64,000 bases of DNA from an uncultured bacterium (GTDB taxonomy: Bacteria; Omnitrophota; Omnitrophia; Omnitrophales; Aquincolibacteriaceae), in contig CAZLTL010000004.1 of NCBI GenBank assembly GCA_964562525.1, forward strand, positions 6,171 through 70,170, read 5' to 3'. Below the pieces are notes generated by a model. The model saw nothing but the letters and a program-made list of their open reading frames with translations, was not told the DNA's origin and did no database searches. The translations under genes were made by a program, and so were the position numbers. Numbering within the stretch: position 1 is the stretch's first letter; every line of letters starts with the position of its first letter. Below are positions 21,439 to 30,836 of this stretch, piece by piece.

Positions 21439-21515
<77 letters not shown>

Positions 21516-21525
21516 TATAACGCTA

Positions 21526-21560
21526 AGAGCCACAGTCACTTAAGACTGTGGCTCTTTTGC
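21526..21560 (+). terminator. hairpin terminator after the tRNA (probably island-borne)
   Basis: AGAGCCACAGTC-acttaa-GACTGTGGCTCT followed by TTTTGCTTTG. Confidence 0.6.
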
Positions 21561-21582
21561 TTTGTAATCCATAAAATACCCC

Positions 21583-21604
21583 CTGTTAACACTTTTGTTA
21601 ACAG
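21583..21604. repeat. half-copy of the island GTTAACA-palindrome element (GTTAACACTTTTGTTAACAG)
   Basis: Shares GTTAACACTTTTG with the full repeats at 28323, 30077 and 30584. Sits 68 nt after the tRNA 3' end and 26 nt before the first island gene. Confidence 0.5.
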
Positions 21605-21629
21605 TTCATCCATTGAAGCGTGAACCTAT

Positions 21630-22460
21630 ATGACAGAATGTATTTCTCAAGCCCTTAAAGACCTTTTGCCGGAGCATCCGCACAAGCGATATGCCCCTAT
21701 AGAGGTTTGCATTTATTGCGGCAGCAAACAAAATTTAAGTGATGAGCATATTATCCCGTATGGTTTTGGCGGTAGATGGGTGCTTCCCAAAGCTAGCTGT
21801 TTTAATTGTGCAAAAAAAACGAGTCAATTTGAAATGGTTTGTCTTCGTACAATGTATGGGCCATTACGCCAGCTATACGATCTCCCTAGCAGAAAAGGGA
21901 AAGCAGATAAGTTACCTTTAAAAATTAAATATGTGCCATCTAATGAATGGCAAACAGTTTTGGTGGATCAGGTTGATTATCCTTTTTTAGTTGGTTTCCC
22001 TTATTTCTCATTGCCTAATCTGGTTTCAGGTGCGAAAGATGCGGAGAGAACTGGAGCAACAACCAAGCGCATATGGATACGGGGCGCTTCTGCATATGTA
22101 AATTTCGATGAGCATCTAAAAGCTTTAAGTCAGCGATTAAAAGCGTACGAGTTATTTCCAGAGTTTCATCTTCATGTTAAAGAATTTTGTCAGATGCTTG
22201 TTAAGACGGCTTATTCATATGCAGTGGCTGAGCTGGGTTATGGCGTATTTAAGCCTTTTCTGTTACCGCACATCGTCCAAGATGAGTTATCCAATTGTGC
22301 AGACTTTATCGGTAGCTTAGAAAAAGATGAGATTCCGGGGAAAGCACTTCACGAATTATTTATCTGCAATACTATGAGAGGCGATATCGCGGTAAGAGTG
22401 CGCTTTTTAGCAAAATTAGGCACGCCAACTTATTTTGTTGTTGTGGGATCAGTTAATTGA
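21630..22460 (+). CDS. HNH-nuclease-domain protein with a C-terminal domain of unknown function
   Basis: N-terminal CIYCGSK..SDEHIIPYGFGG..CFNCAKKT matches the C-x2-C / D-H-I-x-P / N / C-x2-C HNH pattern. The ~200 aa C-terminal region has no recognisable motif. Confidence 0.55.
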   Translation: MTECISQALKDLLPEHPHKRYAPIEVCIYCGSKQNLSDEHIIPYGFGGRWVLPKASCFNCAKKTSQFEMVCLRTMYGPLRQLYDLPSRKGKADKLPLKIKYVPSNEWQTVLVDQVDYPFLVGFPYFSLPNLVSGAKDAERTGATTKRIWIRGASAYVNFDEHLKALSQRLKAYELFPEFHLHVKEFCQMLVKTAYSYAVAELGYGVFKPFLLPHIVQDELSNCADFIGSLEKDEIPGKALHELFICNTMRGDIAVRVRFLAKLGTPTYFVVVGSVN

Positions 22461-22473
22461 GGAATTTGATTAA

Positions 22474-23214
22474 ATGATTTGTCGGTATTGCAATCAGGAA
22501 ACAAAGCTCATAAAGTCCCATATAGTTCCCGAGAAGTTTTATTTGCAGGCGTTAGACCGGACTCAAAAAAACGACAAGCTTATTATCATTGATAAGCGAA
22601 AAAAATATACACCTGCATCTCCAATCGGACTTTATGACCTTGGCATTTTATGCGCTTCATGTGACGGTAAGCTTGGTGTCTTTGACAACGCCGCACAGTT
22701 GTTATTTCTAAAAGACATTCAACGATACAAGTCCCCAGATAAAGATTTGTATGTTTTGCCCTTATCTGCTTTTGACTACCAAAAAATAAAATTATTCATT
22801 GTTTCAGTGCTGTGGAGAGCATCAATATCTACACTAGAAGCTTTTGAGGCTGTTCAGCTCGGCTATAAATACGAAAAAATAGCATTAGATATTATAAAAG
22901 ATCCATCAAAAGATGATGATGACACATTTGCTTTTTTTGTTTTGAAATTTAAGAATAAGCCCAACTTAAGAATGGATGGGATATTTGTGCCTCCAATGAG
23001 GAACAAAATCGATGGTATAAATAGCTATAGGTTTGTTTTTGCCGGGTATGTTTTTCATATTAAAGTTGATAGTCGCAAGTATCCTCCTCTATTTCATGGT
23101 CTTTGTTTGAGTTCAAAGAGAGACTTTTTAATAATCGAGACCAGCCCTGAGAATGAAAAATTCACATTGGAACATATGAACGGAATACGGATTGCTAGGC
23201 AAAATTTACAGTAA
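22474..23214 (+). CDS. HNH-nuclease-domain protein, paralog of the upstream gene
   Basis: CRYCNQ..KSHIVPEKF..CASCDGK HNH-like N-terminus. GAGGA RBS 10 nt upstream. AT-rich with an unknown C-terminal domain. Confidence 0.55.
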   Translation: MICRYCNQETKLIKSHIVPEKFYLQALDRTQKNDKLIIIDKRKKYTPASPIGLYDLGILCASCDGKLGVFDNAAQLLFLKDIQRYKSPDKDLYVLPLSAFDYQKIKLFIVSVLWRASISTLEAFEAVQLGYKYEKIALDIIKDPSKDDDDTFAFFVLKFKNKPNLRMDGIFVPPMRNKIDGINSYRFVFAGYVFHIKVDSRKYPPLFHGLCLSSKRDFLIIETSPENEKFTLEHMNGIRIARQNLQ

Positions 23215-23621
23215 ATTACAAACACACCTAAATAAAAGGTTCTGGATACCGTGGGGACAGGTCGATTTTCTTCATCTTTAAGGGACATGATCCCGAATGT
23301 GCGGGATATGTGTGGGGGGGGATGTAAAAAGTAAAATGCCTCTTGCTTGGAAACCGAACCGTTAGCCATTTTTTTGCGAAACTGAGTTTTAAGATAGCCT
23401 GTCTTTAGCAAACGCTGTAAAGCCTTATAGCAAAATAAGCTATAACCCATTTCAACAAGTTTTTTATGCCTTCCCGAAATAAAAATATTTTCTAGCGAAA
23501 AATAATTTTATTTAAAAAAGTTAAAAAACTCCTCTTTTCACCACATTAGTGTAGTGAGAGCCATCGTTAACTCTTATGTTTAAGAGAATGACGAGGGTTT
23601 TTAAAAGAAGAGGAAAAATAT

Positions 23622-23837
23622 ATGAAGAAAAAAGCACGCACTCCGCTCAAATCAATCCGCATTTACTGCACCACAGTCTGTTCCAGTCAGTTAAAAGAAG
23701 TTCGCTTGTGTTCTATGAGCGATTGTCCGCTTTATATCTATCGGTTTGGGCGAAATCCATCCAGATCAGGCATTGGTGGGACCTTAGATAAGATTACTCG
23801 AAAAAATGATGTTGAGTCGGGCAAAACTACAAAATAA
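23622..23837 (+). CDS. small Cys-rich (putative zinc-ribbon) protein; alternative frame 23576-23791 is equally possible
   Basis: 71 aa with C-x3-C ... C-x4-C spacing. AGAGGAAAAATAT RBS before the ATG. Confidence 0.3.
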   Translation: MKKKARTPLKSIRIYCTTVCSSQLKEVRLCSMSDCPLYIYRFGRNPSRSGIGGTLDKITRKNDVESGKTTK

Positions 23838-23847
23838 GGGCATTTCC

Positions 23848-24078
23848 ATGAATAAATCAGAATCATATTCGACCCAAAATTTATATGAGGCGGCCTTTTG
23901 TTTCTGCAAGGGTTTTAAACTTGCCGGTAAACGCCGGGAAGGTAGCAAGGTAACTGTTCTTTTTGAAGGTAAAAATGTGCGCGAAGAAGCCATTAAATTT
24001 TACAACGGTGGAAAAATCGAAGCCAAGGCGCTTACCGATGCGTACCGAACTCTCAAAGATTATATTTTCGAGAGATAA
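23848..24078 (+). CDS. small conserved mobile-element protein (DUF5659-like, recalled from memory)
   Basis: YSTQNLYEAAFCFCKGFKL..FYNG..DAYRTLKDYI pattern that I associate with a small phage/ICE-borne family. Start Met is uncertain. Confidence 0.4.
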   Translation: MNKSESYSTQNLYEAAFCFCKGFKLAGKRREGSKVTVLFEGKNVREEAIKFYNGGKIEAKALTDAYRTLKDYIFER

Positions 24079-24105
24079 GCTGCAAAAAAATGAGGAGAAA
24101 AAAGA

Positions 24106-24609
24106 ATGGCTCTTTTCAATTCAATCCACTCAAGCATGTGGGAAGATGACAAATTCCGTAAACTTGCAGATCTCAAATCTAGACTTTTATTTATCTATGC
24201 TTTTACCAATCATAGATGTTCAGTTTCTGGAATATACAAAATTTCCATCGAAACGATGAGTTTTGAGCTGGGGTTTTCCCCAGACTGTATAACGCAACTG
24301 CAAGAAGTCATTGATGTCGGTTTGGTTTCATACGACTTCAATAAAAATGTGATTTGGGTGCATGGAAAAATGAAGTTTGATAAGTCGTGGCGAGCAAAAA
24401 TGAGATTAAAATCGATTCAACGCAGCATAGATGAGTTTTCTAAATGTTCATTTATGAGCGATGTTTATTCTCGCTATCCCTTTTTAATTGAACTTGCACT
24501 TGAGTCAGACAAAAGAATGACAGAGCTCCGGGGAAGTCTGGCGCCAGAGGTAGAGTCAGCTTTAGAGGCAGAGGAAGCGAAAGAGGAAGAGATAAGAGGG
24601 TCTATATAG
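24106..24609 (+). CDS. hypothetical protein (island cargo; possibly a replication/regulatory winged-helix protein, speculative)
   Basis: 167 aa. GAGGAG RBS 11 nt upstream. Acidic C-terminal tail. Confidence 0.45.
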   Translation: MALFNSIHSSMWEDDKFRKLADLKSRLLFIYAFTNHRCSVSGIYKISIETMSFELGFSPDCITQLQEVIDVGLVSYDFNKNVIWVHGKMKFDKSWRAKMRLKSIQRSIDEFSKCSFMSDVYSRYPFLIELALESDKRMTELRGSLAPEVESALEAEEAKEEEIRGSI

Positions 24610-24612
24610 GGT

Positions 24613-24846
24613 ATGGATACCGTCTCCGTTGTTGGTAGTTATTTAAATATGCGCGAAGCTGGAAAATACATTGGCCAGAGTTATCGCTGGATGCAAAGAA
24701 ATTACATTGATTTGATCAAGAACGGAGTTCCTGTGTTTCGATTACCCAAAGACTCGCCTAAAGGCCGGTTAGTGTTTGAAAGGGCCGGTTTGGATCAATA
24801 CATGTTTCAATGTCGCATTGAAGGTAACTTTGAAACCTTTGGGTAA
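24613..24846 (+). CDS. excisionase/AlpA-like helix-turn-helix DNA-binding protein
   Basis: 77 aa. LNMREAGKYIGQSYRWM..GVPVFRLPK..GRLVFERAGLDQYM resembles the HTH_17/Xis family. Located directly upstream of the integrase. Confidence 0.55.
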   Translation: MDTVSVVGSYLNMREAGKYIGQSYRWMQRNYIDLIKNGVPVFRLPKDSPKGRLVFERAGLDQYMFQCRIEGNFETFG

Positions 24847-24903
24847 CCTACCCAAAGGTCTAATAAGAAACTCAGCAATACAAATGGGATTAAGAAAGAG
24901 AGG

Positions 24904-24924
24904 GTGTTAACAGTGTTTGTTAAC
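24904..24924. repeat. half-copy of the island GTTAACA-palindrome element (GTGTTAACAGTGTTTGTTAACG)
   Basis: Matches the first half of the full repeat TGTTAACAGTAGTTGTTAAC. Confidence 0.45.
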
Positions 24925-24938
24925 GAAAAGGAACAAAG

Positions 24939-25076
24939 TCAGCGTTTTTCAGCTTCTTTGGTGAGGATTAGCTGTACCAAGTTAGACAGGGAGCGACCTT
25001 CGCGCTTGGCACGGGCCTCCAGCTTCTTTTTAAGCTCGTCTGTAACCTTGAATGAGAGTGTTTGGTCTTTTTTCAT
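24939..25076 (-). CDS. ribbon-helix-helix (CopG/Arc-like) DNA-binding protein, 45 aa (not in the ORF track because it is under 60 aa)
   Basis: Translation MKKDQTLSFKVTDELKKKLEARAKREGRSLSNLVQLILTKEAEKR shows the classic RHH beta-strand plus two helices pattern. Divergent from the integrase gene. Confidence 0.55.
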   Translation of the reverse strand: MKKDQTLSFKVTDELKKKLEARAKREGRSLSNLVQLILTKEAEKR

Positions 25077-25154
25077 GTAAGTAAATGTAAGTAATTATAT
25101 GTTGCTTTCTCGGGATAATCCTCTAAAATAAAGTAAGTAAAAGTAAGTAATTAT
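25077..25154. repeat. two 22-bp direct repeats (GTAAGTAAaTGTAAGTAATTAT / GTAAGTAAaaGTAAGTAATTAT) in the int/RHH divergent promoter region
   Basis: 25077-25098 and 25133-25154 match at 21 of 22 positions. Each is itself a tandem GTAAGTAA unit. Confidence 0.6.
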
Positions 25155-25162
25155 GAGGATAT

Positions 25163-26197
25163 ATGGCTAGCATCTTTAAACGGAATAAAACCTGGTATGT
25201 GTCCTTCCTCGCAAGTGGAAAGCAGGTAGTTAAGAGCTTGAAAACTAGCGATGAGAAGCTCGCTAGGCATTTGAAGAAGGAATTTGAGGTGAAGTCCCGC
25301 CTTAAAGAACTTCGCACTGAAAAACGCATTTCAGTCGAGGAATATTGCAAGCAATACCTAGATGAAGTGACATATCGGAAGCAATCGACCAATGTTGCTG
25401 ATTATTCCCGGATTCGAGACTTTTTAGGAACGCATGGAAAGAAAACCATCAACAGCATTAACTACGATGACATCAGGGCTTATCTGAAACGCTATGAGTC
25501 TAAATCTCCCAAGACCTATAACGAGGTTATTCTGACCCTGAAACGATTTTTTAGACTGGCCGTCGAGCGAAGCTATATCCTGAAAAATCCGGTAGTAGGT
25601 TTTCGCCATAAAAAAGTTCCTCAAACATTGCCGCGCTTTCTGACAGACGAAGAATACGGCACTTTGGAGAAATTATCCATAGATGAGGGTATCTATCCAA
25701 TGGTGGTTGTGGCCAGGTACACGGGATTGAGGCTGGCAGAGCTCTTACATCTTGAATGGCAAGATTTTGATTGGGGACGGAAACTGGTTAGGGTGCTGAA
25801 CAAACCCAAATTCAATCATACGGTTAAAAATTATCATACGCGAGTTGTGCCGGTTTCTGATGAGTTGAGAGATAAGTTATTGCCCTATATCAAATCAGAA
25901 GGGCTTTGTTTTCCCGGCCCCGAAGGAAGTCCCTATTACCATGAGGGGCCTCGAAAACTCATCCGCCGAATTATTGATAAGTCAGGCTTGCGCGAAGGCC
26001 GACGCATGGGATGGCACGAATTTCGTCATACTTTTGCTTCACGATTAGCTCAGGAAGGTATTTCTCTCTATAAAATTTCTAAGTGGCTTGGACACTCCGA
26101 TTTTAAAACCACACAGATTTATGCTCATTTCGCTCCTATATACGATGATGATATAGAAAAGCTATCTATAAAGCCTATTTTCTCAAAAATCGCTTAA
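25163..26197 (+). CDS. site-specific tyrosine recombinase (phage-type integrase)
   Basis: N-terminal arm-binding-like domain (KRNKTWYVSF). Catalytic R..H-x-x-R..Y residues (LRLAEL, HEFRHTFAS, IYAH). GAGGAT RBS. Confidence 0.9.
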   Translation: MASIFKRNKTWYVSFLASGKQVVKSLKTSDEKLARHLKKEFEVKSRLKELRTEKRISVEEYCKQYLDEVTYRKQSTNVADYSRIRDFLGTHGKKTINSINYDDIRAYLKRYESKSPKTYNEVILTLKRFFRLAVERSYILKNPVVGFRHKKVPQTLPRFLTDEEYGTLEKLSIDEGIYPMVVVARYTGLRLAELLHLEWQDFDWGRKLVRVLNKPKFNHTVKNYHTRVVPVSDELRDKLLPYIKSEGLCFPGPEGSPYYHEGPRKLIRRIIDKSGLREGRRMGWHEFRHTFASRLAQEGISLYKISKWLGHSDFKTTQIYAHFAPIYDDDIEKLSIKPIFSKIA

Positions 26198-26322
26198 TAG
26201 CTCCTTGCGTTTTGTCGATGCTCTATAGGCAGTCTGTAAAAGGAGGCTTTTAAACCTATTTTGAATAGTGTAATATCTACATATCACCAATACACTTACA
26301 TCAAAAAAAGCACTATTTAGCA

Positions 26323-27039
26323 ATGACCAGCAGCATTAAAAATTCAAAGCTCGATAATTTTCAGTTAGTTGCTTTTTGTCCAGGAATACAAATAGCGGAT
26401 AAATTAAAAGCTGCGAGTGAAATAAATAATGCGGCGCGGGGTCTTTTTGATGGTGATCCCACGATTTTTCCAATCCCAGGCGAAGCGCCTCCCGAAGTTC
26501 CTCGCATTATATTAAAATCAAAAGATAATTTGCGTCTTTTTCAAGTTGCGGGCAATCGTATTGATTTTATTTATAAATTATCCGATGCAGAAAGAGAATC
26601 TGAAGTATTGAAGGTAGGCAAGGAACTATTTCAAATTTTCTCATCTATTTGTGCAGCCATATTGGAACAAAACGGAACAAAATTTACAAGAACAGCATTG
26701 GTTACTAATTGGGCAATTTTCTTAGAGGAAGAATCTCCTAATTATTTGGTAAAAACATATACAAAAGAACCGGCAATTTTTAATTCACCAGCAGCTTTTG
26801 AACTTCATAACCTTAATAAAAGTGCATTTTCCAAGTGTAAAGTAAACCAATGGTTAAGAATAAAATCGGCCCAAACTCCTCAGGGAACTCCGAATGTTTT
26901 AAATGTAATTGTAGATATAAATTCATTAGCGGAAGAAGCATATGAAGTTAATACAGATTTTTTAAGTTCTTTTCTCTCAGAGGCGATCAATGAGACTTCA
27001 AAGATTATCAAGTCTCATTTTGGAACGATTTTAAAATGA
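26323..27039 (+). CDS. hypothetical protein, cassette gene 1 of 3
   Basis: 238 aa with no recognisable motif. Stop overlaps the next start (ATGA). Confidence 0.45.
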   Translation: MTSSIKNSKLDNFQLVAFCPGIQIADKLKAASEINNAARGLFDGDPTIFPIPGEAPPEVPRIILKSKDNLRLFQVAGNRIDFIYKLSDAERESEVLKVGKELFQIFSSICAAILEQNGTKFTRTALVTNWAIFLEEESPNYLVKTYTKEPAIFNSPAAFELHNLNKSAFSKCKVNQWLRIKSAQTPQGTPNVLNVIVDINSLAEEAYEVNTDFLSSFLSEAINETSKIIKSHFGTILK

Positions 27040-27686
27040 GAACCATTCGCCTTTCTGAAAAGTCTATTTTTGGCAATTGTGCAGTTCAAACAGTGAATGC
27101 ACCTCAAAACTCTTCTTCTCCTGAGCCCAATCTTTTTTTGAAAAACTGTGTAAATGAGGATCTGTTTAAAATTCTTGTTCAAAGGGTTGATGGTTCGCAA
27201 AATTTTCAAATTGAAGATATATCCAATTTGCCCGTAGTTACTGTCCGCGAAGCTCCCTCATTAATATTTGGAGCTTATGTAATGCAGCTGGTAAACCATG
27301 TTTCTCGTCCTGAAAGTTTTCATATTGTCGCAAGTGGGGATTCGGTCATTGATATGTCGACAATTATCTGTGATTTTAAAAAATTGATACCCCAAGAGAA
27401 AGCAGATGAGCGGGAGCTTCTTTTTTTAGAGGCGGCAAAGCGATTTAAACAATTTCCTCAAGTCAAAGCGATTTATATTCAGGAGTGCCGTGAAGATTTG
27501 TTTATTTATGGTTTGTTGGATATTAAAGAATACGATGATGATCTGATGGATTCATTACTTGATGAAGAATATGAGATAAGGCAACAATTTAAAGATTTTA
27601 TACTTTCTTTCTTCTATCCCCCTATTGGAGACACCGACCGAAAAGATGTAGTACATCCTGCTTCACGTTGCATTTTTTCGAGGTAG
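27036..27686 (+). CDS. hypothetical protein, cassette gene 2 of 3
   Basis: 216 aa, acidic, no recognisable motif. Translationally coupled on both sides. Confidence 0.45.
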   Translation: MRTIRLSEKSIFGNCAVQTVNAPQNSSSPEPNLFLKNCVNEDLFKILVQRVDGSQNFQIEDISNLPVVTVREAPSLIFGAYVMQLVNHVSRPESFHIVASGDSVIDMSTIICDFKKLIPQEKADERELLFLEAAKRFKQFPQVKAIYIQECREDLFIYGLLDIKEYDDDLMDSLLDEEYEIRQQFKDFILSFFYPPIGDTDRKDVVHPASRCIFSR

Positions 27687-28321
27687 TTGTGGCAGATTAC
27701 TCTGTGCATTATGCCCAAGCTACTCACAACAGATTGACCGCGACCAAACTTGTTGATGAACCACCTCACCACGATTGGGGAATAACGGCCGCCTTTTACT
27801 CAGCCATCCATTATTTTGAATGCTGGCTGTTTGGCGAAACGGAAAAACACACCGAAACGAGTATTCCGGTAGACCCAAATAATAACAGATGGAAATTCTC
27901 ACCGCATGCGTGGCGAGAGAAATTAGTTGAGCAGAAAATGTCACGAAATGCGTTTAAAGCCTTCCGAAAGTTGAGGGAAAATAGTGAGACTTCAAGATAT
28001 TTGACATTTTCAATGGCCCCAATCTCGATGCCCGCGGCACAGTTTTTCAAACCAGAGGCAGCAAAAAAAATAGTCGCAGTAGAGCTTGAAACATTTCTCT
28101 CCGAACTTAGAATCCCATGGAGAAAATTTGTTTATTCTTTAGAGTTGGATCAGTCTATTGGCCCCTTGGCGCCATTTATTATCAGAAGCATGTTTGCTTC
28201 ATTTAGTGACCAAACACAATTTCTTCAAACATCCAAATCCGATTTAACCAAGATTTTTGGCGCACAAACGTCGGCGTTGATACGAGCAGTTGAAGCTAAA
28301 GGTTTTAGTTTCTCGGTCTAA
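27668..28321 (+). CDS. hypothetical protein, cassette gene 3 of 3
   Basis: 217 aa. Overlaps gene 2 by 19 nt. No recognisable motif. Confidence 0.45.
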   Translation: MHFFEVVVADYSVHYAQATHNRLTATKLVDEPPHHDWGITAAFYSAIHYFECWLFGETEKHTETSIPVDPNNNRWKFSPHAWREKLVEQKMSRNAFKAFRKLRENSETSRYLTFSMAPISMPAAQFFKPEAAKKIVAVELETFLSELRIPWRKFVYSLELDQSIGPLAPFIIRSMFASFSDQTQFLQTSKSDLTKIFGAQTSALIRAVEAKGFSFSV

Positions 28322-28322
28322 A

Positions 28323-28368
28323 TTTGTTAACAATAGTTGTTAACACTTTTGATGGTAAATAGCGGTAA
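28323..28368 (+). repeat. island repeat copy A (TTTGTTAACAATAGTTGTTAACACTTTTGATGGTAAATAGCGGTAA)
   Basis: Starts 2 nt after the stop of cassette gene 3, with a TATAAT at 28385-28390 downstream. Precedes the transglutaminase-like gene. Confidence 0.7.
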
Positions 28369-28397
28369 GATCTTTAGATTAGAGTATAATTCAGCTT

Positions 28398-29549
28398 ATG
28401 TTTTTTTATTCGATTTCGTTCTTCCGCCTGCTGCGAATTGCTTTACCCTCATTGATAGTTCTTATGTTTTTACAAACTTATCTTCATGCGCAAGAGAACG
28501 TGGGCTCTATACCAACAAGCTCCATTCTAGAAAAGGTCGAAGAATTAGCAAACACGCCAGAAGCTAATATTGATCTTGAAAAAGAAATCTTTGAGCTTCT
28601 AAAGATTACTAATCGGGATTTGCTGGGTAAAGATATTGATATTCAAATTTATCAATCTCAAATTAGTGAGTTGGCACAGGAGTTAGCGGTTTATTTGGAA
28701 GGCGAGAGTGATCCTTACAAACGTATAAATAGAATGAATGAGTTTCTTTTTAAAGAAAAAAAGTTTTCAGCTGATTTTGGCAAAATCAACCCGAATGCAC
28801 CGCTACTAACTTCTGTTCTTGATGGCAATCCTGGGATGTGTGACACGTTGTCACTCCTTTATCGATTGGTGGGATTGCGACTTGGAATGCCACTGGAAAG
28901 TATTTTTCTTACAAACCATACGTTTGTACGCTATGTCTCGAATGGTTTTAGCATCAATATCGAAGCCACTGATGCCGGAAAATCGTATAACGATGACTGG
29001 TATGTTGAACAGTTCAAGCTCTCTGGTTCTAAAACAGATTTTTTTTCTGTCCCTGGAGCCAAGGCAACTATTTTTGCTTATTTGATTAACCTTGGCGCCC
29101 ATTATAGAACGCACGGTCGTCTTGATGATTCAATCGCAATCCACCGCAAGGTAGTCGATTTGTATCCAAATATATTTTTGGCTCACATCAATTTGGGGTG
29201 GGGCTACTTGGGTAAAAAAATGTTTGATGAGGCCATAAAGGAATATGAGGTCGCCTTGACTTTGTTTCCGAATGAATCTCTTGCTTGGCGTATGTTAGGA
29301 GCTGCGAGCGTTCAGAAAAATATGAAAACAGATGCAATAGCATATTTGGAGAAGGCGCTTGCTCTTAATAAAGATGATGAAGAGGCAAAAGATTATCTTC
29401 GTATTGCAAAACAGTTGCCGGATGCAAATCGTAAAGGGAGAGATTGGGGAATGGACTCATATTATAAAGAGCTGGGTATCGCTCCCAAGAGTAAAAAAAT
29501 AAAGGAGGAGGTTGCAAATGAGAATCGACCAGTGGTCAACCAATGGTAA
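28398..29549 (+). CDS. secreted transglutaminase-like cysteine-protease-fold protein with C-terminal TPR repeats
   Basis: Signal peptide. Core GMCDTLSLLY..LGMP..FLTNHTFVRY resembles the transglutaminase-like Cys/His core. C-terminal TPR-like repeats (EAIKEYEVALTLFP.., AIAYLEKALALN). Confidence 0.6.
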   Translation: MFFYSISFFRLLRIALPSLIVLMFLQTYLHAQENVGSIPTSSILEKVEELANTPEANIDLEKEIFELLKITNRDLLGKDIDIQIYQSQISELAQELAVYLEGESDPYKRINRMNEFLFKEKKFSADFGKINPNAPLLTSVLDGNPGMCDTLSLLYRLVGLRLGMPLESIFLTNHTFVRYVSNGFSINIEATDAGKSYNDDWYVEQFKLSGSKTDFFSVPGAKATIFAYLINLGAHYRTHGRLDDSIAIHRKVVDLYPNIFLAHINLGWGYLGKKMFDEAIKEYEVALTLFPNESLAWRMLGAASVQKNMKTDAIAYLEKALALNKDDEEAKDYLRIAKQLPDANRKGRDWGMDSYYKELGIAPKSKKIKEEVANENRPVVNQW

Positions 29550-29553
29550 TACG

Positions 29554-30054
29554 ATGCATAGCAGAAAACTCATAACACTTTTTTTTCTTGTGGCGGGGTG
29601 TATTTGCTTTGCAGGGCTTAGTGCGGCAAAAGATAATGATGTTGTTTACCAGTCAGGTGTCCATGAGAGCAAAGTGGGAAACGTGGATATAAATTATCTT
29701 TTTCAAAACTATGTTGGAACAATAGAAGCAGATAGGGCGTTAAAAGAGCGGGCAAGCGAAAAAGACGTTGTAAGAAATCAAATCAAAGAGCAAATCGAAG
29801 CTCTAAAAGCTCAGGCTGATGATAGCGATGCTTTGTATGAAAAGGTATCAGAGTTGAAGAAATATGATGATGAAACGCTTGCGTCGATTGCCGAAGAACG
29901 AAAAGTGGTTTTAGGGCAGATATTTCAGAAAATAAATTCATCTATATCAGAATATGGGCAAAGAGAAGGGTATTCAATTATTTATAATGCTGGCTCCCGA
30001 AAGAAAGGCAAGTCGATAACAAAAGATATTTTGAAGCTATTGAATAATTCATAA
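29554..30054 (+). CDS. OmpH/Skp-like periplasmic chaperone
   Basis: Signal peptide followed by a coiled-coil region and a C-terminus ..GYSIIYNAGSRKKGKSITKDILKLL resembling the Skp C-terminus (..AVAYNSSDVKDITADVLKQV). Confidence 0.55.
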   Translation: MHSRKLITLFFLVAGCICFAGLSAAKDNDVVYQSGVHESKVGNVDINYLFQNYVGTIEADRALKERASEKDVVRNQIKEQIEALKAQADDSDALYEKVSELKKYDDETLASIAEERKVVLGQIFQKINSSISEYGQREGYSIIYNAGSRKKGKSITKDILKLLNNS

Positions 30055-30076
30055 GATATTGTGATGCGCTTGGATA

Positions 30077-30134
30077 CCCAGCGGTCTATTTGTTAACAGT
30101 AGTTGTTAACACTTTTGATGGCAAATAGCGGTTA
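30077..30134 (+). repeat. island repeat copy B (ACCCAGCGGTCTATTTGTTAACAGTAGTTGTTAACACTTTTGATGGCAAATAGCGGTTAA)
   Basis: Differs from copy C at only two positions across ~58 bp. Precedes the 30161 gene. Confidence 0.7.
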
Positions 30135-30160
30135 AAAGTGAATGAAAAAAAGGGGGAGGG

Positions 30161-30529
30161 ATGATTTCATTTTTAAGAAAATTTCTACCGAATCAAGATT
30201 TGAAAGTTGCATTTAAAAATGTAATGGAAATAAGGATGGGGGCGCCTTTTAATGGCGCAGATTTGGAGCTAACAGGTAGTTGGATTCCTGATCTTCCTCA
30301 GGGGGGATGGCAAGATTTAACAGCATGTAGTAGCGACAAGCGATATGTAGGTCTTGTGCGCTGGGAGCATCTCGAAGGAAGTCCAAACTTCGTTGTTTAC
30401 ACAATTGATACCAAAAGGAAAGACTTCACAAAAGCTGATCGCGTAGCTGGCTGCTGCAAGAAAATATGGTGGGATGAAAATTCTCAGAAATTTGAATTTG
30501 ATCGTTTTTTGTATGTAAAAACCAAATGA
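30161..30529 (+). CDS. hypothetical protein (island cargo)
   Basis: 122 aa. Strong AGGGGGAGGG RBS. Confidence 0.45.
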   Translation: MISFLRKFLPNQDLKVAFKNVMEIRMGAPFNGADLELTGSWIPDLPQGGWQDLTACSSDKRYVGLVRWEHLEGSPNFVVYTIDTKRKDFTKADRVAGCCKKIWWDENSQKFEFDRFLYVKTK

Positions 30530-30583
30530 AGCCACAGAAATCTTGCTATTTGCTCTAGATGTCGCTTAGCAATTTTTGACTTA

Positions 30584-30641
30584 CCCAACGGTCTATTTGT
30601 TAACAGTAGTTGTTAACACTTTTGATGGTAAATAGCGGTAA
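30584..30641 (+). repeat. island repeat copy C
   Basis: ACCCAACGGTCTATTTGTTAACAGTAGTTGTTAACACTTTTGATGGTAAATAGCGGTAA. Last copy, ~105 nt before attR. Confidence 0.7.
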
Positions 30642-30735
30642 ATATCGGTCAAACTCGGATAAATAAATTTTCAAAAAATTCTCCTAACTCCTTTATTTTT
30701 GGTTATATCGGTCAATGTTGGATAATATCGGTAAA
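30642..30735. repeat. three ATATCGGT(C/A)AA direct repeats (candidate integrase arm-type sites) proximal to attR
   Basis: atatcggtcaaactcggataa (30642), atatcggtcaatgttggataa (30705) and atatcggtaaa (30725). Confidence 0.5.
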
Positions 30736-30748
30736 TGTTTTGAAGCTC

Positions 30749-30798
30749 GCTCATAACCCAAAGGTCCCAGGTTCAAATCCTGGCCCCGCTACCATATA
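30749..30798 (+). repeat. attR: 50-bp exact direct repeat of the tRNA-fMet 3' half (anticodon loop to CCA plus TATA)
   Basis: gctcataacccaaaggtcccaggttcaaatcctggccccgctaccatata is identical to 21470-21519. Confidence 0.9.
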
Positions 30799-30801
30799 GA
30801 A

Positions 30802-30836
30802 AACCCGATTGGGCTTTAGCCCAGTCGGGTTTTTTC
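30802..30836 (+). terminator. rho-independent terminator (probably the original tRNA terminator)
   Basis: AACCCGATTGGGC-ttta-GCCCAGTCGGGTT followed by TTTTTC. Confidence 0.65.

Follow-up and report, generated by a model that had tools for sequence, protein, structure and literature searches.

Background

Lambda-family heterobivalent integrases, such as lambda Int, KplE1 IntS, Tn916 Int and the integrases of P4 and HP1, act on attachment sites with short repeats in both attP arms at fixed distances from a core in a tRNA gene. In KplE1, arm-type and core-type sites overlap the promoter of IntS, and the arm-type sites double as int operators (PMC2951348). In this study, a repeated element of 46–61 bp was analysed in a 64,000-nucleotide stretch of DNA (hereafter, the window) from an uncultured bacterium of Candidatus Omnitrophota (assembly GCA_964562525.1, contig CAZLTL010000004.1, positions 6,171 to 70,170, forward strand), where it lies in a genomic island that encodes a tyrosine integrase (Int). 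The island resembles the lambda-family systems in the placement of its repeats, in the extra N-terminal beta-sheet domain predicted for its integrase, in neighbouring phased sites that are plausibly used by an excisionase, and in a site cluster upstream of int that suggests autoregulation as in IntS (PMC2951348). It differs from them in the strict tandem pairing of its sites (13-bp period in the P arm and upstream of int, 12-bp period in the P' arm), in at least five specificities within one integrase family, in a conserved palindromic pseudo-core beside the int-upstream pair and in extra truncated P-arm modules inside the island. Three of these features are not standard, namely, the strictly paired 13/12-bp sites with at least five specificities, the pseudo-core and the repetition of truncated P-arm modules at cargo seams.

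Two further types of system are comparable in part. Tandem accretion, as in arrays of integrative and conjugative elements (ICE), integrative and mobilisable elements (IME) and cis-mobilisable elements (CIME) and in composite tRNA islands, is similar in that related elements pile up at one tRNA site (here at loci L027 and L012) and in that the cargo is modular and largely of the defence type. Classical accretion leaves internal attachment sites with cores, whereas the internal copies of the present element (A and B in the window, and Z in a related contig) have neither core nor proximal arm, and a new gene block begins within 25–30 bp of the copy. Integron attC arrays likewise have an integrase followed by similarly oriented gene blocks, with a short element between them and a content that varies between strains. 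However, the integrase of this island is not IntI, and attC-type imperfect inverted repeats (R''/L''...L'/R') are absent. An attC site is a hairpin with crossover at GTTRRRY, whereas a hairpin can form here only in the lineage with TGTTAACA, the GTGACAAT, TGCCAACA and TGCTAATA pairs of relatives being direct repeats; moreover, the copies are absent from most relatives. The integron analogy therefore fails because neither the integrase type nor the site structure fits. In mosaic lambdoid phages, short conserved intergenic linker sequences coincide with the breakpoints of exchanged modules; unlike those linkers, the linker of this island is a recognisable piece of an attachment-site arm and is repeated within a single element.

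We consider it probable (about 0.72) that the element is the distal P-arm module of a lambda-type integrase island, in which copy C is the working arm and additional, truncated arms (copies A and B) lie at cargo seams. According to this model, two tandem 8–9 bp repeats (here TGTTAACA) would be arm-type sites read by the N-terminal beta-sheet domain of the integrase. The TTTTGATGG sequence and the ~10-bp-phased CGGTAAAT units that follow would bind the Xis-like protein or a bending factor and would let arm-bound integrase reach the core in the tRNA anticodon stem-loop. Copy C would act as the functional P arm and the site at 21584 as the P' arm, while the site at 24905 would let the integrase regulate the RHH/int region. 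Copies A and B would be supernumerary P-arm modules, cut off after unit 2 and without core, at the seams where cargo was appended at the attR end. As near-identical patches shared between islands, the copies would also serve the exchange of whole blocks.

Copies of the element in the window

The repeat search of the window recovered the three direct copies (A, B and C; Table 1) that a sequence-only reading of this DNA had described. The near-identity of B and C claimed there was confirmed (95% over 61 nt). For A, identity across the 61 nt falls to 79%, yet 44 of 46 positions agree in the core TTTGTTAACA...GCGGTAA. Two further short sites, reported earlier as half-copies, have the paired TGTTAACA only; both are situated upstream of int, and the proposed layout downstream of the integrase does not extend to them. 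The claim of a copy at every gene-block junction was overstated, for none is present at 23215–23620 or between int and the gene that follows it. In copies B, C and Z, a core-like half-site, TACCCAACGGTC (TACCCA(A/G)CGGTC), lies 4 bp ahead of the pair; its motif recurs at the int-proximal site.

GTTAACA occurs 22 times on both strands of the window against 5.3 ± 2.6 expected, and 19 of the 22 occurrences are inside the island. The spaced pair GTTAAC-N7-GTTAAC was found four times in 64 kb against 0.1 expected. The wider search for the element recommended by the earlier reading gave pairs at fixed places in related islands; within the 64-kb window, the element profile had no significant match outside the island, and a scan of viral contigs returned 0 matches.

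Fixed attachment-site anatomy in related islands

Approximately 40 loci (L numbers) were collected from metagenome-assembled genomes (MAGs) and metagenomes, including about 15 related islands with pairs, mostly in Candidatus Omnitrophota MAGs. Integrase relatives comprised about 20 proteins at 66–83% identity and more at 45–57%, and the named records were Candidatus Omnitrophota or loosely labelled MAGs. Integrase relatives were also labelled ‘Deltaproteobacteria’ or ‘uncultured proteobacterium’, and the TPR-OmpH-o122 contig L040 (P0121, P0122; GCA_003524705.1) was filed under an ‘Anaerolineae bacterium’ MAG; such mixed taxon labels may reflect mis-binning of island contigs or spread between phyla.

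The P-arm pair consists of tandem 8–9 bp repeats with a 13-bp period and starts 151–152 bp upstream of the tRNA core CTCATAACCCAAAGGTC in all loci whose sequence includes the right island end (window, L003, L005, L010/11, L016, L017, L026, L031 and L012). It is followed by TTT(T/C)GATGG, four ~10-bp-phased (C/T)GGTMAA units, about 45 bp, four more units and then the core. The P' pair has a 12-bp period and lies 114–118 bp from the start of the core (window, L003 and L023), or just inside the left end where the contig begins within the tRNA (L031 and L033); in L043, a pair with this period and of the type proper to that locus is likewise close to the left end. More than 12 loci have a third pair, which follows the Xis-like gene and precedes RHH/int; in L003 and L006, which lack RHH, its distance from int is only 84–94 bp. 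In L012, a pair abuts the int stop codon. The repeats thus occupy arms on either side of a core of which each island end has a copy, and they do so at fixed distances; the arrangement has the anatomy of an attP site with a P arm, a P' arm and an int-proximal site. The 3.7-kb mini-island L003 has kept all four pairs although genes for Xis, RHH and the small left-end proteins are missing; apart from int, its coding content is limited to a 269-aa open reading frame (ORF) and a Fic gene.

The phased (C/T)GGTMAA units are conserved across all pair types. As their CGGTMAA sequence is retained in all types like the motif of the Xis-like protein, the units are natural candidates for excisionase or bending-factor sites, and they probably bind one or the other. 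A reading of TTTTGATGG as an IHF consensus was dropped because the spacing is off by one.

Switching of the repeat type and its probable reader

Pairs in the window lineage are of the TGTTAACA type, and those of the P0011 clade (L004, L027-30 and L014) read GTGACAAT-N5-GTGACAAT at the same positions. Other types are TGCCAACA (L033/34), TGCTAATA (L035), TGTTAATA (L006) and TGTTAGCA (L012 and L043). Each island has a single type at all positions present on its contig, namely, two or three positions for TGTTAACA, GTGACAAT, TGCCAACA and TGTTAGCA; TGTTAATA and TGCTAATA were each observed at a single position. Between islands, the spacers vary freely, and the repeats and their 13/12-bp periods are retained. 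Concerted switches of this kind require a sequence-specific binder encoded by the island.

The paired palindromes noticed in the sequence-only reading are peculiar to the window lineage. In relatives, the repeats at the corresponding places are direct and not palindromic, and thus the palindrome of TGTTAACA is incidental. The absence of a hairpin from these sister lineages removes the possibilities of a terminator, a cruciform and an inverted core-type site. An intrinsic terminator or cruciform built from the two TGTTAACA palindromes with CTTTTG behind them is very improbable, as is a small mobile repeat resembling a miniature inverted-repeat transposable element (MITE) or a repetitive extragenic palindrome (REP), although the pair does fold into a hairpin of 8–9 bp with a U-rich continuation (-9.4 kcal/mol and z=-5.9 for the P' copy) and a terminator scan flags 21604–21583 on the minus strand. 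The hairpin is missing at the same positions in the GTGACAAT type, copies A–C form weak, AU-rich hairpins (z only -0.9 to -1.75), and Rfam finds the tRNA only, with no match for the element. In addition, the islands alone carry the element, its distance from the core is fixed, and terminal inverted repeats and target duplications are lacking.

Among the island proteins compared, only the integrase N-terminus (the first ~30 residues) tracks the pair type. Within a type, residues 1–32 of Int share 82% identity, against 62% (at most 75%) for integrases of different types; from residue 61 to the end, identity is 81% within types and 75% on average, up to 89%, between them. The Xis-like protein shows 62.5% identity within types and 60.7% between, and its motif GQSYRWMQRNY is invariant or nearly so in all types (RHW in L031). 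For RHH, the comparison covered proteins of different types, where identity reaches 76%; its beta-strand is nearly identical in L031 (TGTTAACA) and L014 (GTGACAAT), and the RHH of the window is very unlike that of L031. The DUF5659 protein, the Zn-ribbon protein and the 167-aa protein (o167) are no more similar within types than between them.

Signatures in the Int N-terminus are IFKRNKTWYVS..GKQ[VI]VKSL for TGTTAACA, IYKR.R.WY..YMETGKQV[YH]KSL for GTGACAAT, IFKR.QIW.ISDFSTGKQIVKSL for TG(T/C)TAATA and LFKRGKNWHIAYYEEGKRIYRSL for TGCCAACA. The integrase of L014 is a mosaic whose N-terminus fits its GTGACAAT sites and whose next domain resembles that of the TGTTAACA-type loci L008 and L010. As the integrase N-terminus follows the type and the other proteins do not, the integrase most likely uses the pairs as its arm-type sites. 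Their sequence is distinct from that of the core-type motif CCCAAAGGT.

RHH was rejected as the binder of the pairs on account of its beta-strand and overall identity, and the Xis-like protein on account of its lack of co-variation with pair type. The earlier suggestion that the element is an operator for RHH, the Xis-like protein or the zinc-ribbon protein was accordingly not upheld, as none of them tracks the repeat switches and the Int N-terminus does.

The integrase has about 57 N-terminal residues more than Xer proteins. Its best relatives in the Protein Data Bank (PDB) are XerC, XerD and XerA, and Xer-type matches begin at residues 58–106; a match to IntI4 is short and covers residues 264–323 only. 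The N-terminal residues were modelled as beta-beta-beta-alpha (AF2, pLDDT 81), and this predicted fold has the topology of arm-binding domains.

Int-proximal pair and pseudo-core

The pair at 24905–24924 is a probable integrase autoregulatory or arm-type site. Beside it lies a near-perfect palindrome, the pseudo-core (Table 1), in which CCCAAAGGT takes part; this sequence has 4 occurrences against 0.46 expected. In nearly all relatives, the right arm of this palindrome, CTACCCAAAGGTC, stands directly after the Xis-like stop codon, whatever the type of the arm sites, and an imperfect inverted partner usually precedes it. Equivalents of the pseudo-core were recognised in L004, L005, L008, L010, L023, L026, L027, L031, L032, L033, L006 and L003. 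The pseudo-core imitates the anticodon stem-loop of tRNA-Met (TTGGG-CTCATAA-CCCAAAGGTC), the point at which the 50-bp identity between the island ends begins. By analogy with KplE1, the pseudo-core and the arm-type pair beside int suggest bivalent binding of the integrase for autoregulation. The pseudo-core could be a core-type operator of the integrase, or an exchange site for the left and right halves of the island.

Internal copies and strain comparison

A profile of the terminal P arm detected one strong copy per island, with significant truncated extra copies only in the window, L003, L012 and L037/L038. L003 has one internal copy, followed by further degenerate units and the Fic gene, and L027-30 carry a degenerate copy (GCGACAATA/GCGACAACA) ahead of the last cargo gene. 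Eight lineages with 1–5 kb of cargo (L004, L005, L010, L026, L031, L032, L033 and L035) have no internal copy, which indicates that internal copies are dispensable.

Tandem arrangements were observed at two loci. The distant relative L012, which has a different core (CTGGGTTCAAATCC...), carries a full P arm and core at 1015–1200; at 2127–2200, about 0.9 kb further on, a second pair is fused to a second core through CTGG microhomology. This second pair is a tandem remnant with an arm deletion. The ~0.9 kb between the arms is unannotated, with reading frames seemingly on the opposite strand. In L027 (4596–6700), an attR core of the GTGACAAT-type island is followed by an insertion sequence (IS) element of the rve family and then by the P' pair of a TGTTAACA-type element. 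A tRNA-Met-like sequence with an insertion of roughly 75 nt was noticed at 6597 of L027.

Strain comparison was based on L037–L042, contigs from other samples with the order TPR-OmpH-[B']-o122-[C']-arm-core, 98.5–99% identical to 28324–30658 of the window. The 122-aa protein (o122) and the transglutaminase-like/TPR protein (TPR383) of this block are near-orphans with homologues only in L037-type contigs. The block shared by the window and L037 measures 2.3 kb, is about 99.7% identical and stands in another genomic context in L037: its left neighbour is a 516-aa gene preceded by the further truncated copy Z, the flank beyond the core also differs from that of the window, no integrase was found within 10 kb, and orthologues of the L037 upstream genes were found neither in the window nor in the other loci. 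L037 has four copies in series, each ahead of a gene block.

Between the window and L037, there are 5 differences in 2026 bp of cargo genes, 3 in 46 bp of copy A, 0 in 61 bp of copy C and 6 in 106 bp of the proximal P arm, and copy B' has lost one 13-bp repeat (9941–9979 in L037; also in L038–L042). The genes flanking B' are ~99.5% identical and the downstream gene is intact; the loss looks like slippage between the two repeats. With copy C identical and A and B' diverged, the working copy is conserved and the internal copies vary between the two strains. The left edge of the shared block lies just after copy A (last single-nucleotide polymorphism (SNP) at 28367), and its right edge after units 2–4 of copy C (first SNP at 30659). 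With regard to the cassette shuffling envisaged in the sequence-only reading, what precedes the TPR-OmpH-o122 block in the window is unrelated to what precedes it in L037, and the break falls at copy A; no single-cassette polymorphism was detected beyond the loss of the 13-bp repeat.

Origin and role of the internal copies

The boundaries just described also bear on whether the copies are true cassette recombination sites, at which a crossover just after unit 2 would insert circles of genes plus module and build an integron-like array at the attR end. We hold this to be unlikely, and equally so that the truncated module is a dedicated cassette junction, acted on by the island's own integrase/Xis complex or by another activity, in arrays that reach four copies in L037. 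In Z, A and B, resemblance to the terminal arm ceases within ~6 nt after AGCGGT, and the block shared with L037 begins after 28367 and ends between 30642 and 30659, at the same relative position in copy C; the serial copies of L037, each preceding a gene block, and the core-like half-site ahead of the pair in B, C and Z point in the same direction. However, the crossover region is the tRNA-Met anticodon/3' segment with its 50-bp identity rather than the element, no inverted core-type site with a shared overlap lies beside the copies, and the pair, being a direct repeat (GTGACAAT-N5-GTGACAAT) in sister lineages, cannot be such a site. Most related islands have no internal copies, and the internal copy of L003 is not truncated after unit 2. 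All clear cases belong to one closely related lineage, in which the shared boundary was possibly inherited, and an identical distribution of SNPs would result from one homologous crossover close to the border of the 46-bp homology (roughly 5–10% chance). We know of no recombinase that cuts just after unit 2. From the original proposal of a cassette-site layout, an element of an integrase system with copies at the seams of exchangeable blocks has been retained, and a cassette crossover site has not.

The position of the copies next to cargo genes raises a regulatory alternative, in which RHH, the Xis-like protein or Int acting as a repressor controls the cargo directly downstream of operators or promoters within the element. 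Copy A lies 28 bp upstream of the TPR/transglutaminase-like gene and copy B 25 bp upstream of the 122-aa gene; together with the internal copy of L027, they stand 5–30 bp ahead of a start codon in the orientation of the gene. Arm-type sites can act as operators in KplE1, the 44/46 core of copy A is better conserved than its 5' flank, and the TATAAT reported after copy A is present at 28385. Nevertheless, a sigma-70 scan found no consistent -35/-10 sequences within or after the copies, most islands carry cargo without such copies, and RHH and the Xis-like protein do not track the site type. A regulatory role is further weakened because B lost one repeat in L037–L042 while the downstream gene remained intact and 99.5% identical. 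Operators directing the cargo are, on balance, improbable, slightly more so than cassette sites, though the integrase might serve as a roadblock or repressor 25–28 bp upstream of cargo start codons. A promoter reading was rejected, given the lack of consistent -35/-10 sequences and the number of promoter-like sites in the island (17, against 25 in shuffles).

The reading as a P-arm module allows two routes to the internal copies. Along the first, related islands would accrete in tandem, internal core and backbone would be lost, and homologous exchange would proceed through the 46–61 bp patches. This route fits in that it uses known processes only and tandem arrays have been observed; the common truncation point and the missing cores are not easily explained by it. 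The second would involve a site-specific step just after unit 2, which explains the truncation point and the missing cores; lacking a known enzyme and drawn from one closely related lineage, it is unlikely. Sequence after A, B and Z was compared with the proximal arm, core and P' arm, and nothing convincing was found by eye or alignment.

Several points weigh against the P-arm module and its arm-binding integrase. Co-variation between pair type and Int N-terminus is partly confounded by phylogeny and by the fact that the start of int is physically linked to the pair ahead of it, and the two TGTTAGCA-type integrases (L012 and L043) are rather different at the N-terminus. A Foldseek search with the N-terminal domain gave no significant PDB match, AP2-type folds appearing only at E~0.5, and the integrase did not match Pfam arm-binding families. 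The shared end point of Z, A and B (within ~6 nt) is not readily explained by random deletions, and simple tandem accretion predicts internal cores, none of which lies beside A and B. Finally, A and B are intact in the window at 25–28 bp from the start codons of downstream cargo, where a regulatory role is conceivable.

Island layout and gene content

The island (9.3 kb, 21470–30798) is bordered by a perfect 50-bp direct repeat (21470–21519 and 30749–30798) from the 3' part of tRNA-Met (Table 1). From the left end, its genes encode an HNH_5 protein, a second Cys-rich ORF (246 aa), the Zn-ribbon protein, the DUF5659 protein and o167, followed by the 77-aa Xis-like protein, the 45-aa RHH protein (opposite strand), the tyrosine integrase and three ORFs without family. 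The right end comprises copy A, the transglutaminase-like/TPR gene, the OmpH-like gene, copy B, the 122-aa orphan, copy C, the phased repeats and attR. The Xis-like protein had no Pfam match.

The adjacent genes at 21630–23214 encode proteins of 276 and 246 aa with Cys-rich motifs at both N-terminal starts; the 276-aa protein carries the HNH_5 match and shares 67% identity with a protein encoded in the leftmost part of L031. The intergenic region between the divergent RHH and int genes is filled by a direct repeat of 22 bp (GTAAGTAAATGTAAGTAATTAT; 25077–25098 and 25133–25154), whose two copies are 95% identical and 56 bp apart and are likely an operator for the RHH protein. An island-borne terminator follows the reconstituted tRNA-Met at attL, and the native one is left at attR; L003, L023 and L031 share this design.

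Table 1 Features of the island and its attachment site in the window
Feature	Position	Strand	Description
tRNA-Met (CAT)	21439–21515	+	ARAGORN, Rfam; 3' part (21470–21519) forms the 50-bp core repeat at attL
Terminator-like hairpin, island-supplied	21525–21556	+	Directly 3' of the tRNA, at the start of the P' arm
P' arm pair	21584–21603	+	TGTTAACA-CTTT-TGTTAACA; 12-bp period; 114 bp from core start
Xis-like, excisionase-type protein, 77 aa	24613–24846	+	Motif GQSYRWMQRNY in relatives
Pseudo-core	24835–24859	.	Near-perfect palindrome ACCTTTGGG-TAACCTA-CCCAAAGGT, right after the Xis-like stop
Int-upstream pair	24905–24924	+	13-bp period; ahead of RHH/int; type switches with the P-arm pair in relatives
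RHH (CopG-like), 45 aa	24939–25076	-	Pfam RHH_5/RHH_1
Tyrosine integrase	25163–26197	+	Pfam Phage_integrase, E=1.4e-28
Extra N-terminal domain of Int, residues 1–~50	25163–25312	+	Proposed arm-binding domain (from model)
Copy A	28309–28369	+	Putative internal truncated P-arm module (pair and units 1–2); profile E=1e-10
Copy B	30075–30135	+	Putative internal truncated P-arm module: core-like extension TACCCAGCGGTC, pair, units 1–2; E=1e-11
Copy C	30582–30642	+	Putative distal P arm; pair begins 151 bp upstream of the core; E=4e-17
Proximal P arm	30623–30740	+	Two clusters of four ~10-bp-phased (C/T)GGTMAA units each: 30623–30662 and 30700–30740
attR copy of the 50-bp core	30749–30798	+	Direct repeat; then native terminator, 30798–30835

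The cargo of the window consists of envelope-type genes (transglutaminase-like/TPR and OmpH). Cargo of relatives (L005, L026, L027, L032, L033 and L003) is rich in defence or stress modules, including Abi_2, Fic, a reverse transcriptase beside PRTase, a RES toxin, pairs of UmuD-like protein and Y-family polymerase, and type I restriction-modification. In L005, ImmA-like and PIN-like proteins were recognised by reading of the sequence rather than by domain scan.

Implications

The analysis provides a sequence-level attachment-site model, with core, both arms, pseudo-core and at least five switchable arm specificities. It applies to small islands with cargo and defence genes that form a family not described before and belong to Candidatus Omnitrophota, which to our knowledge is a phylum with no genetic system. 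The paired switches of site and integrase N-terminus amount to a natural specificity table for the proposed arm-binding domain and could guide its engineering. The truncated arm copies are a readable record of the gain and exchange of cargo at the attR end. If their common truncation point reflects a site-specific step, these islands would represent a new way of building cassette arrays.

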